Below are positions 6,356 through 45,079 of a stretch of DNA of 45,700 nt, piece by piece. Positions within the stretch are counted from its first letter, which is position 1. Each line of letters starts with the position of its first letter. The notes beneath the pieces are model-generated. The model did not search any database. It was given only the letters and a program-made list of their open reading frames with translations, and was not told the DNA's origin. The stretch is from a virus (Duplodnaviria; Heunggongvirae; Uroviricota; Caudoviricetes), in IMG/VR virus record IMGVR_UViG_2563366840_000010, positions 1 through 45,700 of that record. One strand, given 5' to 3'. Made by a program: the position numbers and the translations under genes.

Positions 6356-6859
6356 TTATGAATTCCTGGCAAATGAACCATGATTCGCTTTGCGGAAGTC
6401 GCGTATTGCTTCCGCAGCCTTTTCTAATTCAATAAAAGTTCCTACCGTGAATCTTTTGCCATTAACTCGGCACATGGCTGTCCAGCGTTGTTTCCCTTTG
6501 TGCCAATAAACTCCTTTCACTCCGCTCGTATTATTTTTCTGAAGCGGTTTATTGAAGTTATTCTGTGAGCAAGTAGCCTCGCGGAGATTCTCCAGCCTGT
6601 TGTCAGAGCAATTTCCATTCACATGGTCAATCTGGTCTTCAGGCCATTTTCCGTGTGTATAAAGCCAGGCCAAGCGGTGTGCTCTGTATTTCTTTCCATC
6701 GATGATGATTCGTACATAGCCGCGCGTATCTAAATTTCCAGCAAAATCACCTGCGGTTATCCGTCCGCGATTTTTGAGCCATGTGAATGCTCCTGTTTCA
6801 GGCGAGTAGCTGAGCAATTCCTTCAGTCGTGCCAGTGATAATTTTTCTCGCATATTCAT
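6356..6859 (-). CDS. HNH endonuclease with AP2-like DNA-binding domain (~167 aa from internal ATG; ORF extends to 6913)
   Basis: HNH motif region DHVNGNCSDNRLENLREATCSQNN plus GVKGVYWHKGKQRWTA..EKAAEAI AP2-type segment. Confidence 0.8.
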   Translation of the reverse strand: MNMREKLSLARLKELLSYSPETGAFTWLKNRGRITAGDFAGNLDTRGYVRIIIDGKKYRAHRLAWLYTHGKWPEDQIDHVNGNCSDNRLENLREATCSQNNFNKPLQKNNTSGVKGVYWHKGKQRWTAMCRVNGKRFTVGTFIELEKAAEAIRDFRKANHGSFARNS

Positions 6860-7832: not shown

Positions 7833-9236
7833 TTATTGACGATTAAAGTAGTTAGAGTTTAGCTCTTTAGGGAAGTAGTGTTTACGATTTACCCAAACAA
7901 ATCCATCAACTTTTGATATCACAGCGACATCAACAGGCCCACCGACAGTTTCATAATCATGTGATACTTTTCTTTTGAATGCAGTGATGTTCACTAATGA
8001 TTCGGCCATATACGCAAGATCTGCCTTCCCAAGTGATTGCAACATCGATATCATTTTATTTGTATGGTTATTAACAATATAGCTTTCAAGTTTAGTATCG
8101 TGATCTTGTAAAAGTACGTTTTTGAGTTCCTCAATTTCACTGGAGAAGTGATTGGCTAGTACTCCATTGTTCATTGCAGGGAAAATATTGCTAGAAACAT
8201 AATGATTAAGCCGATCAAAAACTTCCTCTGTAAGAGTTCTGTTAAAATTAATGATGTTAGGGTTGCACCCATCAATGAAAGTTACTACTTCATCTTCTTG
8301 AGCAAATGGTATAACAAACCCCATATTGGTTACCTCATTATGGGATTTATCATCAATATTATGGATCATCAATTTGTTTTTAAAAATGCCGTAGATATGA
8401 AGAGTGCAAATGGAAGGGTAATATTCTTCCTCTCCATAACCTGTTATAACAATCCCTGAATATGTACGACTAGCATGGACTTTGAAAATTAAACAAGTGG
8501 AATATAATATGACTTTTTCCATAAGCTCTTGCTGTATATTTTCACAGTTATCAAGAACAATAATTGATGAAATGTATGGCGATATTAAATCTTGTATATA
8601 TGCTAAAGCATCATTAAACTCTTCTGTATCAAACCCTTCGAAAAAGAGATTATTCCTTAAGATTCCTATCTCTAAATCAAAGGCTTGCTTAACTATGTTT
8701 TGAAAAATAACATTGTCGAGTTCAACGGCGGGGTTCATTGTTAAATAGTTTACTACATTATTATCATTAATGTATCTCATCAAACCTTTGAGGTTATCAA
8801 CAACAAGGTTTATAACGCAAGCCTCTCTCATTTCATTTGTTATAAGGTCTGAGTTACCATTGATGAATTTTACAAAGTCATTAACATATTCTTTAATGGT
8901 AGGGAAACTAGTTTTCCCCAATTGTTTTCTATAGGATTTAATTATAAGTTCCCACGGTGCGCCACCCAGTGTCGCATTATTATAAATCATGATCCCCACG
9001 GGATGGTGTTTAGATAGTTCGAATAGTTTTTCCGCACTATTATTTATTTTTACTAATCTATTATGCTCTGTGGTGACTGCAGAGTCAGCAGCAAGGGCGA
9101 TTCCAGTATTATTTATTACAACAATCTCAGCTGTCATTGCAAAACATCCCGTGTAGTAGTGATAAATATTAATTAAATTGATAGTTTTTTTCAATCTAAC
9201 ATAAATGGCGGAATCACCCCCCAGTAAAGACATCAT
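7833..9236 (-). CDS. AT-rich accessory (moron) protein with proteasome-beta/HslV-like motifs; likely true start at 9137 (434 aa)
   Basis: Long ORF co-oriented with and 43 bp downstream of the repressor gene; visibly AT-rich; internal start gives MTAEIVVINNTGIALAADSAVTT; C-terminal VGGPVDVAVISKVDGFVWV. Confidence 0.7.
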   Translation of the reverse strand: MMSLLGGDSAIYVRLKKTINLINIYHYYTGCFAMTAEIVVINNTGIALAADSAVTTEHNRLVKINNSAEKLFELSKHHPVGIMIYNNATLGGAPWELIIKSYRKQLGKTSFPTIKEYVNDFVKFINGNSDLITNEMREACVINLVVDNLKGLMRYINDNNVVNYLTMNPAVELDNVIFQNIVKQAFDLEIGILRNNLFFEGFDTEEFNDALAYIQDLISPYISSIIVLDNCENIQQELMEKVILYSTCLIFKVHASRTYSGIVITGYGEEEYYPSICTLHIYGIFKNKLMIHNIDDKSHNEVTNMGFVIPFAQEDEVVTFIDGCNPNIINFNRTLTEEVFDRLNHYVSSNIFPAMNNGVLANHFSSEIEELKNVLLQDHDTKLESYIVNNHTNKMISMLQSLGKADLAYMAESLVNITAFKRKVSHDYETVGGPVDVAVISKVDGFVWVNRKHYFPKELNSNYFNRQ

Positions 9237-16176: not shown

Positions 16177-16224
16177 CGCCTATAGCGATAGCCTATGATT
16201 TTGTCTTGGGCTATTTACTTTTCC

Positions 16225-16300
16225 CGAATCTGTGTTAATTTTGTCCCAACGATGGGTTAATTCGCTCGTTGTGGTAGTGAGATAAAAAGAGGCGGCGCTT
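16225..16300 (+). promoter_or_regulatory. late promoter pR' / qut-like region
   Basis: caacgatgggttaattcgctcgttgtggtagtgagat... appears near-identical to the lambda pR'-qut sequence as I recall it. Confidence 0.5.
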
Positions 16301-16381
16301 ACTACCGATTCCGCCTAGTTGGTCACTTCGACGTATCGTCTGGAACTCCAACCATCGCAGGCTGAGAGGTCTGCAAATGCA

Positions 16382-16441
16382 ATCCCGAAACAGTTCGCAG
16401 GTAATAGTTAGAGCCTGCATAACGGTTTCGGGATTTTTTAT
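16382..16441 (+). terminator. tR'-like terminator (long hairpin atcccgaaac...gtttcgggat + T-run), end of a 6S-like leader
   Basis: Seen directly; matches the lambda tR' region from memory. Confidence 0.75.
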
Positions 16442-16443
16442 TT

Positions 16444-16518
16444 GGGTCAGTCGTATAAAGGTCATTACGGAAGGCTGTTAACCTTCTTATCGTGGTTCGA
16501 GTCCACGCTGTCCCGCCA
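16444..16518 (+). tRNA. tRNA-Asn (anticodon GTT), phage-encoded
   Basis: Hand-folded cloverleaf: acceptor stem with one T-T mismatch, D-loop with GG, anticodon stem GAAGG/CCTTC and loop CTGTTAA, T-arm CGTGG-TTCGAGT-CCACG, discriminator G, CCA. Confidence 0.55.
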
Positions 16519-16554
16519 AACATGCTGGTTTAGCTCCAATGGTAGAGGTGGTAA

Positions 16555-16980
16555 ATGCCGAGCAAAGATTACTATCTTAATCGAAGGGCTAGGCTTGCTA
16601 AGGCCGTGGAAAAGTTGGGTGGTCGTTGCGCGAGTTGCGGATCCGAATATTCGCTTCAGTTTGACCACATAGACCCTTCCACCAAATCAGCAAATGTAAG
16701 CGAGATGCACTATCACTCAGATTCGGTGTTTTATGCTGAGGTTGAAAAGTGCCAACTACTATGTTCTGCATGCCACATTCAGAAAACCAAATTTGACCTT
16801 AGCTACTTAGTAGCTGGTGAGCTGAATGGTATGAGCAAGCTAACAATGGACAGCGTCCAGTTCATCAGAGAAAACTACATTCCACGACATAAGGTTTATG
16901 GAGCCAGAGGGCTAGGGAGAATGTTTGGTGTAACACATCAAACAGTGCTTTCAGCCTTAAATGGCGAAACCTGGAAATAA
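16555..16980 (+). CDS. HNH endonuclease (141 aa)
   Basis: CASCGS...DHIDP...CQLLCSACH HNH motif. Confidence 0.8.
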   Translation: MPSKDYYLNRRARLAKAVEKLGGRCASCGSEYSLQFDHIDPSTKSANVSEMHYHSDSVFYAEVEKCQLLCSACHIQKTKFDLSYLVAGELNGMSKLTMDSVQFIRENYIPRHKVYGARGLGRMFGVTHQTVLSALNGETWK

Positions 16981-17397
16981 GCTGCGCGTCAGAGGTTCGA
17001 TTCCTTTGCCCGCTCCAGTAAAAGCTTTCCAGTCTGCGATGATGGGTTCCCCGGAGTGACTGGAAAGCGACCTGGTTTTGAATGGGCGCTGCTTTTTGCA
17101 AAATTGCTGTGTGAAAATACTGACCTTTGGGTTCAGCGCTCATCCAAAAGCATCACGTGAATTCACCAACGCTCATGTACTCTCCAGGAAACAATAAGTG
17201 ATTCTGAAAAGTTCCGGTTAGATATTGCCCCGGTCACCGGATGATTTTATCTTTTGGTTCGTGGTGAATCCCCCTATGCGGCGGGGCGTCCAGTCAAACT
17301 TTTTTGTCCAGGTTTGTTTGCGCGGAACTAGTCGGCTGGGGCTGTTCCACCGGGAGGCACCCGGCGCCACCTCCTTGACGGTATTGTTATTTTTCAT

Positions 17398-17424
17398 GCC
17401 TGTTCGTCCGAGCAGGCTTTTTTT
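17398..17424 (+). terminator. intrinsic terminator (GCCTG-ttcgtccgag-CAGGC + T7)
   Basis: Seen directly; no convincing plus-strand CDS upstream. Confidence 0.6.
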
Positions 17425-17455
17425 GCCCGCATTATCTTCATTGAAAACTGGCAAC

Positions 17456-17626
17456 TCAGAGAATCATCCAAATTAAAAAAGCAGCAACGAGAGCGATTAC
17501 TAATACATTCTTCGCTTTTTCTCTTCTGCTGGCCTTCACAAAAGGATTCACTATCCGGCAGTGGCTACACACAAGTGATTCTGGGTTAATTAACTTTCCG
17601 CAGTAGGGGCAGGGCTTGATAATCAT
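17456..17626 (-). CDS. possible small zinc-ribbon membrane protein (56 aa)
   Basis: Unlisted ORF MIIKPCPYCGKLINPESLVCSHCRIV... with hydrophobic C-terminus; no clear RBS. Confidence 0.25.
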   Translation of the reverse strand: MIIKPCPYCGKLINPESLVCSHCRIVNPFVKASRREKAKNVLVIALVAAFLIWMIL

Positions 17627-17833
17627 TGGTACTAATTAAGTTGTGAGAACGTAGTCTCATTTAACCACATTTATCGAGTTGTTTTACTAATGGTCTAGTT
17701 ATTTCAGACATATTCATCAATTTCAGGCTCACGGGAATCATCCGCTACGTGCTTTGTTGATAAATCCAGCCCGTGAAGCCTGACCCTTTTCAAACACACA
17801 CACAGCGCCATCCGAAAAATCGGAGGTGAGGCT

Positions 17834-18112
17834 ATGACCAGAATGAGCACCATTTACAGCAGACTTTCATATGGAACAGGAACCACGCTGACCGGCTGCG
17901 GTGTATCAGCGAAGGCATATGCCGAAACAGCTAAAACAGCAAAAGAGGTGTCCTGGATGTTGGCCGACAGAATTGCAGGGTTAAGCCTGAGCGACTGGGC
18001 AATTATTGTCGGTATCGCATGCACTGTTATTACCTGTGCAGTGAACTGGTATTTCCGCTGGAAAGAACGGGAGGATCGGCGCAATGGCTATGCCACCAAA
18101 GCTGAAGAATAG
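17834..18112 (+). CDS. pinholin, phage-21 S21-like (92 aa)
   Basis: GGAGGTGA RBS; two TMDs; C-terminus [11 protein letters not shown] parallels S21 YFKIREDRRK. Confidence 0.8.
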
Positions 18113-43282: not shown

Positions 43283-45079
43283 ACTCCGGCCACGCCCTCA
43301 ACAGCCTGGGGTAATTGAAAGGTTACGTCTCTCACTGGTAAAATCCACCCAGATCTGGCTGAGGCTGTCCCGACGAATATATCGCCGCAATCACGGAGAG
43401 ATTCTTTCCGTAGCTGTGTTCATAGGCGCGCGGAGTGCGCCATGCGTGGTTTGTTGGCTTATGGCGATCCTCCTTTAGCCTCTGGTGGGGGGTTGGTTAA
43501 GAATTCCTATGGCCTAACAGGTATCGACCCAAAGGGAGGTTACTGAGCGTTAACGACCGGTGCTATGGTAGAGATGAATAACACATGTTCAATTTTTGGT
43601 GAGTCATTTTATTGAGGGTAATCCATACCAAGGAACGTGTCTTTTAACTAAGTCATAATGCCTTTCTCCTGATTAATGCCGTTGTAAATAACGAACTAGA
43701 GGGATGGAAGGCATCAGACGCTAACGAATAGAATTTAAATGCTAACAGGAAGGTTTAGGCTGCACCGCCACACGAAAAAATCCTTATTGCTGGCGATATT
43801 CCGCCGCATTCCTGTTCAGATGTTCCTCCACTCAATCAGGCTGGGCTTACTGTCTTCCCTGCATCAGATATAAAGTTATTGAAAAATCTGGCCAACGAAC
43901 ACGGTAACAGCATACATAGCCCCGAAAAAGGAGCTTCGGATGGTCTGAAAGCTCCGGAACTGTAGCCAGATAATATGACCCCTAATGACCCGTTCACGCC
44001 GTACCTGGATGGTGATGCCGGGGAATCGGATATTGAAAGGCCTACGCAGCCGGCAGTTCCGGTAGGCGCGGAAGAGGCGCGGCGCCAGTAACTGATTGCG
44101 TCAGCGCGTCCATCTAACCGACCGCATCAGTTGGACTGGCAGGTCCGACGTGAACCAGCGTACGTACAACCTACCATCTCTAATGCAGTGCACGGATGGA
44201 TGGAATCGCTGCATGAAACAGTGACCGGCGCTGCGCTTGTTCTCCGTTTGCCGCAGCAGTCGGCTGCGTAGCAGTTTCCATAACTGGTTTACCACAATCA
44301 TCATCCTGCTATAGGGTATACAGATCGATAGTGGTCATATTTTCAGGCGACTGTTCCTGACCTTTGAGTTGTCTCGAAGCTGCCGTTTCGGGCCTATATA
44401 TGCTTTCAACGCGATGGTTTGCCAGATATTTCAATAATTTTCTTTCTGATGCAGTAAATTCAATATGACCAGCATTCGTGGGACCAGGAATATCTGACCA
44501 CGCAGGCGCCGCAATACCGACGGCCACACGAATATATTCTGTTGGCGGTTAAAGATTAAACTCCCTCACAATATTTTGATTATCATCGGTAGCATCTCAT
44601 GAATCCGAACCATCGGATTTATTTTTAACAATGACTTCCATCATCAGGAAGGCATTATGCTATGGGCTATAGAGATGTTCGTTCGTATGATTCCCCCACA
44701 ATCAACCTATACCCTAACAATTCACTTAGTGTAATTCAGCGCTACCATGTCACTAGCTGATGATATGCTGCGACCAGAAGTTGAATCGGAACACGTTGGC
44801 GCATCGTCCGTGACCACGCACCGCCGCTCAGAGCCAAAAAAAGCGTCGCGAGAAGCAGAAAAAGTAAGCGTGGAGCAGACCCCTCGCTTGGCATACGAGA
44901 TGCTGAATATAACACTGCGTATATGAGGCAATTTAGTTGGCGTATACGCCTTTGCCAGATCCGGCTGTACTTCCGCGGTAAGAAACGCCACATAGCATTT
45001 AAGACTGGCAGAAGACGGAGTGGCCGAAATCCGAGGTTCCCCCGTCCCAACAGGTAATGCTGAGCCTTCTCCCAAACCA
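43234..45079. other. ~1.85 kb invertible segment between inverted crossover sites; no intact ORF >125 aa
   Basis: Flanking sites share 15 nt (cttctcccaaaccaa) in inverted orientation; central dinucleotides TT and AA. Confidence 0.5.

Follow-up and report, generated by a model that had tools for sequence, protein, structure and literature searches.

A putative HNH-HTH homing endonuclease gene inside a tRNA-Thr(UGU) gene of a lambdoid late tRNA module

In phage T4, the GIY-YIG endonuclease SegB reads a T-psi-C motif that lies within tRNA genes, and its homing carries the tRNA region of T4 along (PMC2330249); and SegB homologs are statistically associated with tRNAs across phages (PMC2330249; PMC13096335). 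HNH genes are the most widespread coding sequences in mycobacterial, viral and cyanobacterial tRNA arrays (PMC5966550, PMC8421152, PMC6409571), and the F-TflI, -II and -IV open reading frames (ORFs) of phage T5 lie in the T5 tRNA cluster (PMC2330249). Free-standing homing endonuclease genes that split a protein-coding gene are described as 'fractured genes' in a further report (PMC2677866). Among lambdoid and P22-like phages, tandem tRNA-Asn and tRNA-Thr genes following the antiterminator gene Q have been published for SfI, Sf6, ST64T, PS3 and p21 (PMC3636060). Here we describe a tRNA module of this kind in which the tRNA-Thr gene is occupied by a predicted HNH endonuclease gene. It lies on a stretch of 45,700 nucleotides (nt) from a virus of the class Caudoviricetes (IMG/VR record IMGVR_UViG_2563366840_000010, positions 1 to 45,700), referred to below as the window. 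A sequence-only reading of the window had proposed a lambda-like late promoter, antitermination site and terminator (pR'/qut/tR') followed by a tRNA with anticodon GTT and a low-GC HNH endonuclease gene. We compared the locus with alleles that have or lack the HNH gene and with its distant relatives, and we consider homing into tRNA-Thr genes the probable origin of the arrangement.

An HNH gene between two broken tRNA-Thr halves

We found that the window carries the first 24 nt of a tRNA-Thr(UGU) gene of the type present in phage Kapi1 (ThrA), comprising the 5' strand of the acceptor stem and the D arm and identical to the first 24 nt of Kapi1 tRNA-Thr. The Kapi1 gene starts GCTGGTTTAGCTCCAATGGTAGAGCAGTCGCC...; the window keeps the first 24 nt and then reads GTGGTAA-ATG, the beginning of the HNH cassette. 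Matches to HK446, mEp506, Kapi1 and phiv205-1, all of which annotate a tRNA-Asn and then a tRNA-Thr, outreach the match to lambda and extend to 16547, exactly where the cassette starts. The 3' part of ThrA was searched for and is absent from the entire window. Instead, GCTGCGCGTCAGAGGTTCGATTCCTTTGCCCGCTCCA stands directly after the HNH stop codon and, together with the TAA of that codon, makes up the 3' 40 nt of a tRNA-Thr of a second type (ThrB). From ThrB this fragment has the TAA of the anticodon loop, the anticodon stem's 3' strand, the variable loop and the T arm; at TGCCCG the T arm passes into a tRNA-Gly sequence, namely its acceptor 3' end with CCA (16994-17017). The 3' 40 nt of a tRNA-Thr that stands unbroken in E. 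coli OW1E2 match it with 99.6% identity, and the tRNA-Gly end of the fragment matches the tRNA-Gly of strain MS 115-1. The HNH gene thus stands between two broken tRNA-Thr halves, since a ThrA 5' part and a ThrB 3' part flank the ORF.

Comparison of alleles with the cassette (HNH+) and without it (HNH-) resolves both junctions. The intact ThrB allele reads GCCGGTCTAGTTCAGTGGCAGAACGGCAGCCTTGTAAGCTGCGCG..., and the HNH+ allele reads ...GGCAGAG, then the cassette (GTGGTAA-ATG...AAATAA), then GCTGCGCG..., so that the cassette substitutes 12 nt of tRNA-Thr, ACGGCAGCCTTG. What is lost comprises the last part of the D stem, nt 26, the anticodon stem's 5' strand and the loop as far as the second anticodon base. 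The HNH stop codon (16978-16980) corresponds to T36-A37-A38 of the anticodon loop, that is, the third anticodon base followed by A37 and A38. At the other end, AGAG of the tRNA D stem and GTGG of the cassette together form a Shine-Dalgarno sequence (GAGGTG) for the HNH ORF. The D stem therefore lends part of a ribosome-binding site, and the anticodon loop lends a stop codon, to the inserted gene. The cassette measures 430 bp and consists of 7 nt and the HNH-HTH ORF, with a 3' spacer of zero. As judged from these alignments, the HNH gene sits inside, and has destroyed, a tRNA-Thr(UGU) gene. The earlier placement of the HNH gene directly after tRNA-Asn has to be amended in that the gene is inserted inside the second tRNA gene, tRNA-Thr(UGU).

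Other accounts of this anatomy were rejected. A model in which the HNH gene once abutted a complete tRNA-Thr, as it does in the large phages described below, and an internal deletion then arose through CTG microhomology was dropped because in intact ThrB (...CCTTGTAAGCTGC...) the right junction is no more than a point in the anticodon loop. We also looked to the 3' end of the HNH ORF for a concealed tRNA of the kind met in distant homologs, whose ORFs reach up to 39 nt into the tRNA that follows; there is no complementary acceptor or anticodon-stem strand, and ARAGORN finds nothing there. A tmRNA-like clamp of the tRNA halves around the HNH message was also discarded, as the window halves come from different tRNAs and cannot pair; in most HNH+ loci the halves are able to pair at 6 of 7 positions, which is not the case in the window.

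With ThrA, ThrB and the tRNA-Gly acceptor end, the flanks in the window derive from three tRNAs, and this origin suggests that tRNA genes also serve as recombination joints in lambdoid mosaicism. Hybrid tRNA genes are seen at HNH-free loci as well. The tRNA-Thr annotated in OW1E2 by PGAP is the same ThrB/tRNA-Gly hybrid, with a mismatched acceptor stem, and is probably non-functional (loci compared: L002 2467-2540 and L003 2451-2525). In nine IMG/VR prophage contigs (L303 and eight others), the first 26 nt are ThrA and the rest resembles the tRNA-Thr of MS 115-1 (L003). The acceptor strands of these nine hybrids are non-complementary, and their crossover falls within the GGTAGAGCA common to both parents, at the same point as the start of the HNH cassette.

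An exact search of IMG/VR with the ThrB left flank returned 72 loci, 57 of which run on as an intact 75-nt tRNA-Thr(UGU) (GCCGGTCTAGTTCAGTGGCAGAACGGCAGCCTTGTAAGCTGCGCGTCAGAGGTTCGATTCCTTTGCCCGGCACCA) and 15 of which carry HNH. The site is thus polymorphic for the presence of the gene (15 HNH+ versus 57 HNH-), as it also is when intact Kapi1-type alleles are set against the window. For the ThrA 24-mer there were at least 120 matches in IMG/VR. None of the 120 matches listed has HNH; 111 continue as an intact tRNA-Thr and nine are ThrA/thrU-like hybrids. Of 5426 complete E. coli genomes, four are HNH+; 664 E. coli genomes match part of the query, and those among the matches listed have the intact Asn-Thr pair.

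We defined as close copies 21 prophage loci whose HNH protein is 93-100% identical to that of the window. The right junction and the cassette ends are the same in 21/21. The left junction, AGAG|GTGGTAA, is shared by 20, and the remaining copy (L034) has GGGG in place of AGAG. A ThrA-type left half is limited to the window, KL53, OZ510750 and L026, most loci having ThrB, and a third tRNA-Thr type occurs in L007-L011. One junction position is therefore found on three tRNA-Thr backbones, in each of which the left junction follows the D arm. Neither tRNA half is annotated in the E. coli prophage records examined, which makes the insertion invisible there.

The HNH protein and its relatives

The low-GC HNH endonuclease of the sequence-only reading was borne out. 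The window ORF (GC 44.6% versus 51.0% for the window) matches Pfam HNH (PF01844) with 23.4 bits against a cut-off of 21.4, as do 10 of 12 family members, and matches PHROG 4234, 'HNH endonuclease', at 1.5e-21. C25, C28, D37, H38, C66, C70 and H74 are invariant in an alignment of twelve full-length relatives. The AlphaFold model (mean pLDDT 86.9) has an N-terminal HNH domain and a C-terminal three-helix bundle. Some family members match resolvase-type and other helix-turn-helix (HTH) profiles, and a PDB profile search gave weak HTH matches; these weak profile hits suggest that the C-terminal domain is an HTH. The best Foldseek matches in the PDB were the HNH domains of Cap5 and ZRANB3, which were not significant (E 0.3-1), and neither sequence nor fold searches returned a significant named PDB neighbour. 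The Pfam search found HNH only and no GIY-YIG domain.

Among ten intact alleles the median ratio of nonsynonymous to synonymous substitution rates (dN/dS) is 0.22, with 15, 6 and 32 variable sites at the three codon positions. Decayed copies are found alongside: L026 has a stop at codon 57, another copy is a 94-amino-acid truncation, and E. coli C 236-04A carries a deletion derivative. This last strain (L004 2511-2760) retains tRNA-Asn and the ThrA fragment, along with ~95 nt from the start of HNH; the HNH remnant is joined directly to sequence equivalent to approximately position 17688 of the window, upstream of the holin gene. The gene seems to encode an active protein and to be kept by purifying selection, with decay in occasional copies, and maintained and decaying copies together are what would be expected of the life cycle of a homing endonuclease gene.

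We next considered relatives beyond the close copies. The nearest non-enterobacterial relatives are 58% identical to the window protein and of the same length, and are encoded by large uncultured phages (contigs of 64-100 kb, including L007 and L012) that carry arrays of 7-15 tRNA genes. The left side of the gene in these phages is built as in the window, with a tRNA 5' fragment that ends just past the D arm, followed by ~10-13 nt with a Shine-Dalgarno sequence and the ATG; on the right side, a complete tRNA-Thr(UGU) begins 0 nt after the HNH stop codon. Among 44 other viral contigs with the 26-nt fragment of L007, 31 carry it as the 5' portion of a tRNA-Thr, and the 5' fragment of L012 has no exact match in IMG/VR. 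Isolated phages include no DNA relatives of L007 except for its tRNAs, and tblastn against isolated phages gave no relative above 60% identity.

In more distant relatives the HNH domain is 37-58% identical. Of 63 more distant viral loci, 17 have an ORF whose stop is placed from +2 to -39 nt relative to the following tRNA gene, and there the stop is often a TAG or TAA at tRNA positions 8-10. GTDB species representatives held no close relatives; the profile search there returned distant HNH genes alone, which we took as a sample of genomic contexts. tRNAs lie within 1.2 kb, mostly in same-strand arrays, at 35 of 78 loci in bacterial genomes or metagenome-assembled genomes. A subgroup with a different C-terminal half lies away from tRNAs. 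Distant homologs are also present in mycobacteriophage and Streptomyces phage genomes. A regular-expression search for orphan D-arm fragments upstream of distant homologs proved too noisy, and known cases were missed. In a further IMG/VR phage with 20 tRNA genes (L036, 1501-2103), the HNH-domain match spans 573 nt for 83 residues. A tRNA-Asn is called inside that span, and this nuclease gene may itself be interrupted.

Homing and its rivals

Our favoured interpretation, which we hold to be probable, is that the HNH-HTH protein acts as a free-standing homing endonuclease with tRNA-Thr genes as its target, and that its gene is inserted in the Q-dependent tRNA module of a lambdoid prophage. The anatomy of the cassette is read directly from the sequences; homing is what we infer from them, because filled and empty alleles exist at one site and the target is destroyed when filled, because the insertion position is the same on diverged tRNA-Thr backbones, and because a nuclease is joined to a DNA-reading domain in a gene that shows purifying selection beside decay. 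Transcription would start at the pR'-type promoter and normally end at tR' (16382-16441). With Q, as in lambda, polymerase would be expected to read through tR' and to transcribe in turn tRNA-Asn, the HNH gene, the STnc100-like RNA and the lysis genes. The HTH and HNH domains would recognise intact tRNA-Thr(UGU) genes, belonging to co-resident or co-infecting lambdoid phages, and cut them around the anticodon arm, and repair from the HNH+ copy would spread the HNH gene together with flanking DNA. The HNH+ allele, in which the 12 nt are replaced and no intact target is left, would be immune to its own enzyme. Loss of the phage tRNA-Thr would be tolerated because the host supplies tRNA-Thr(UGU).

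Several points weigh against homing. Cleavage and homing are predictions for this protein and its close relatives, the HTH assignment comes from weak profile matches, and Foldseek offered no significant structural neighbour. The intact tRNA-Thr directly after the gene in the large phages implies that the enzyme cannot cut every tRNA-Thr gene. Since the right-hand junction is common to every enterobacterial copy, one ancient insertion with ordinary recombination of the flanks would explain most of them, and the ThrA and ThrB junctions share an AGAG microhomology, so that the ThrA junction could be a recombination product and not a second homing event. These points lead to an alternative in which the gene is stranded as a passenger: it entered a tRNA-Thr a single time long ago, has ceased to home and is spread by Q-to-lysis recombination at conserved tRNA and terminator sequences. 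Invariance of the right junction and cassette ends fits such a history, as do the mosaic flanks of the 21 close copies (Q and terminator come in three types, the upstream tRNA in four and the downstream sequence in three), the decayed HNH copies, and the HNH-free hybrids of OW1E2 (Thr/Gly) and the nine ThrA/thrU-like contigs. It is also consistent with the outcome of our search for a strictly isogenic HNH+/HNH- pair, of which there was none among 70 loci compared (14 HNH+ and 56 HNH-); the best pair has flanks that are 98.6% identical upstream and 80-93% identical downstream. However, the low dN/dS and the invariant catalytic residues argue for maintained activity, and without a site preference it is difficult to see how the gene would come to occupy one position on three unrelated tRNA-Thr 5' parts, or how embedding in tRNA arrays would recur across its family. 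We therefore regard the passenger history as unlikely.

Another possibility is that HNH serves the phage itself, as a terminase-associated nuclease in cos cleavage or as an exclusion nuclease, and that its position in a tRNA is incidental. HNH proteins act with terminases in some cos phages, and a late-operon gene would presumably be expressed at packaging time. However, the gene is missing from 57 of the 72 loci and from all but four of the 664 matching E. coli genomes, and appears dispensable because most otherwise similar prophages lack it; the packaging genes lie several kb downstream and not adjacent to it, and a sequence-reading HTH domain is typical of homing enzymes. Such a function strikes us as improbable. 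A group I intron with its own endonuclease, from which tRNA-Thr would be restored by splicing, was given next to no weight. Two reports describe group I introns with homing endonucleases in bacterial tRNA anticodon loops (PMC3984707, PMC13011429), and the right junction here does lie in the anticodon loop. However, the ORF fills the insert, with 7 nt before its ATG and 0 nt after its stop, and an insert so filled has no space for the core of a ribozyme. In Rfam no intron family came up at E up to 10; 12 tRNA nucleotides including two anticodon bases are gone, and ARAGORN calls no tRNA there. The intron is excluded by this anatomy.

Homing into tRNA-Thr genes makes a directly testable prediction of the target, namely the anticodon-arm DNA of phage tRNA-Thr(UGU) genes, and if it is true it helps to account for the frequent recombination boundary between Q and the lysis genes. 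The locus provides a homing-type nuclease gene that lies within a tRNA gene, with base-resolved junctions and with both its filled and its empty allele available. Through it the SegB-type association of tRNAs with homing endonucleases, seen in large virulent phages, reaches temperate lambdoid prophages of E. coli and Enterobacter. A blind spot in annotation is exposed as well, in that broken tRNA halves go unannotated. More tentatively, we speculate that the gene belongs to a tRNA-Thr(UGU)-specific lineage that moves between large virulent tRNA-array phages and lambdoid prophages by intron-less insertion, and whose cuts shape the mosaic boundary between Q and lysis genes; we would put this at somewhat short of an even case.

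Genomic setting and comparison with described systems

The leader lies directly downstream of a Q-family antiterminator gene (Pfam Antiterm). In a megablast search of phage genomes, lambda (J02459) 44575-44781 matched window positions 16236-16441 with 97.1% identity over 206 nt (E 5e-93), and an alignment of lambda, Kapi1 and the window gave identity from the -10 hexamer via AACGAT to the tR' hairpin and U-tract. The AACGAT element, which we take from lambda to be a -10-like pause element, is the same as lambda's and occupies +1 to +6. Upstream of 16236 neither megablast nor the alignment detected similarity to lambda. The -35 is TTTACT in the window versus TTGACT in lambda, and the spacer, which in lambda holds the Q-binding element, is unrelated; of the putative promoter only the -10 end lies inside the lambda-identical stretch. 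A simple consensus scan gave no sigma-70 site at the putative late promoter, so that the case for it comes from position and homology; the corresponding place in HK630 bears the annotations PR' and qut. The Q protein is 38% identical to lambda Q and has a 53-amino-acid insertion with CXXCXGXG motifs, an extra zinc finger of the DnaJ type (Pfam DnaJ_CXXCXGXG, 6.4e-09), and the non-lambda -35/Q-binding region fits this diverged Q. By alignment, the leader and terminator are lambda's and the Q-specific half of the promoter is not. The sequence-only reading, which had taken the stretch after Q as nearly identical to lambda's late promoter leader and tR', thus held for the leader from the -10 onward and for tR', and failed for the -35/Q-binding region. 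Lambda has no tRNA after tR', where the window has tRNA-Asn.

ARAGORN called a single tRNA over the whole window, tRNA-Asn(gtt), and Rfam agreed (gathering score 29, E 1e-10), in accordance with the tRNA with anticodon GTT that had been read after the terminator. It starts 2-4 nt beyond the point at which the lambda homology and the U-tract end. The GUU anticodon, G73 and CCA are identity elements for tRNA-Asn; the gene has G73, an encoded CCA and a conserved U4-U69 mismatch in the acceptor stem. When six phage tRNA-Asn genes are compared, 11 of the 23 predicted pairs show compensatory double changes. Together with the annotation of a tRNA-Asn at this place in Kapi1, mEp506 and E. coli prophages, these sequence features indicate that it is a genuine, intact phage tRNA. 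It is kept in most of the HNH+ loci that we examined, and L030-L033 have a different tRNA directly upstream. In two of the large uncultured phages (L007 5107-5181 and L012 4395-4467) we observed a tRNA-Asn with D and anticodon arms closely like those of the window, which suggests that tRNA genes are exchanged between virulent and temperate phages.

The proposal that this tRNA offsets the codon bias of AT-rich morons found little support in codon usage. Asn codons make up 47 per 1000 in the window ORFs and are not rare (5 of 141 in the HNH ORF), and the Asn-rich ORFs lie outside the late operon. Two AT-rich ORFs, 7833-9236 (-) with a GC of 0.34 and 105 Asn codons per 1000 and 6356-6859 (-) with a GC of 0.45 and 90 per 1000, are probably morons; both are on the opposite strand and far from the late operon that carries tRNA-Asn. 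In SfI, an ACA (Thr) bias was found and none that would account for tRNA-Asn (PMC3636060). An anti-defence role for tRNA-Asn is possible.

Downstream of the tRNA relic, the late transcription unit contains a homolog of the STnc100 family of small RNAs, between the relic and the holin gene, and a terminator scan showed that it ends in an intrinsic terminator (17398-17417 and a T-run). The STnc100 block also follows intact tRNA genes in E. coli OW1E2 and MS 115-1. A 56-amino-acid ORF on the opposite strand (17456-17626) has a zinc-ribbon/DUF2116 match and a hydrophobic C-terminal stretch, and occupies the same place in OW1E2. The holin gene forms the downstream end of the Q-to-lysis intergenic module (Table 1).

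Table 1. Features of the Q-to-lysis module in the window
Feature	Position	Strand	Evidence or detail
Q antiterminator gene, lambda-Q family, 260 aa	15394..16176	+	Pfam Antiterm 1.9e-45; PHROG 127 4.7e-104
Putative late promoter	16214..16241	+	-35 TTTACT 16214-16219, 16-nt spacer, -10 TAATTT 16236-16241; alignment to lambda and Kapi1
Lambda-type late leader, 6S RNA equivalent	16248..16441	+	AACGAT 16248-16253; tR' hairpin and U-tract 16382-16441
tRNA-Asn(GUU), intact	16444..16518	+	ARAGORN; Rfam RF00005 55.3 bits
5' fragment of Kapi1-type tRNA-Thr(UGU), ThrA, 24 nt	16524..16547	+	GCTGGTTTAGCTCCAATGGTAGAG
HNH cassette left end, GTGGTAA	16548..16554	+	Junction AGAG|GTGGTAA ATG in close relatives
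Predicted HNH-HTH endonuclease gene, 141 aa	16555..16980	+	Pfam, PHROG; identical to WP_001568783.1
3' tRNA fragment, ThrB-type tRNA-Thr fused to tRNA-Gly end	16978..17017	+	OW1E2 and MS 115-1 matches
STnc100-family small RNA homolog	17236..17428	+	Rfam RF02076, 71.7 bits vs gathering 47, full-length
Holin gene, lysis cassette start	17834..18112	+	Pfam Phage_holin_2_3 1.7e-11; phage holin in KL53, L6-21

The lambda-type leader, tRNA-Asn and tRNA-Thr genes after Q, and HNH genes in tRNA arrays are already known. SfI, Sf6, ST64T, PS3, p21, Kapi1, HK446 and mEp506 have the position directly behind the late terminator, the tRNA-Asn and the first 24 nt of tRNA-Thr in common with the window; in those phages tRNA-Thr is intact and the HNH gene absent, whereas in the window tRNA-Thr is broken. 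The HNH genes of tRNA arrays (T5 F-Tfl, mycobacteriophage clusters and cyanobacterial L-arrays) are likewise wedged into arrays, and have been proposed to move or diversify tRNA repertoires. The reports on them describe adjacency only, whereas the window has a defined insertion inside a named tRNA with intact alleles, and its likeness to the T5 enzymes is one of genomic setting. Fractured genes resemble the window in having a homing endonuclease gene within a host gene that is neither intron nor intein; there, split inteins rejoin the products, whereas the tRNA halves of the window stay apart with 12 nt lost. In a literature search of incomplete coverage we found no publication describing an HNH-HTH insertion in tRNA-Thr. 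What is new is modest: a family combining HNH and HTH, a target at the D stem and anticodon arm, insertion within a tRNA gene and a temperate lambdoid host.

With T4 SegB the window shares a free-standing nuclease gene embedded among phage tRNA genes and a predicted recognition site inside tRNA genes. SegB is a GIY-YIG enzyme whose gene sits between genes and which reads T-psi-C at the 3' end of many tRNA genes, whereas the window protein pairs HNH with a putative HTH and its gene lies inside tRNA-Thr, at the D stem and anticodon arm, with the tRNA gene destroyed. The host differs as well, being a temperate lambdoid prophage with only two tRNA genes. By this analogy, the best reading is that the window HNH would work like SegB while standing outside the SegB family.

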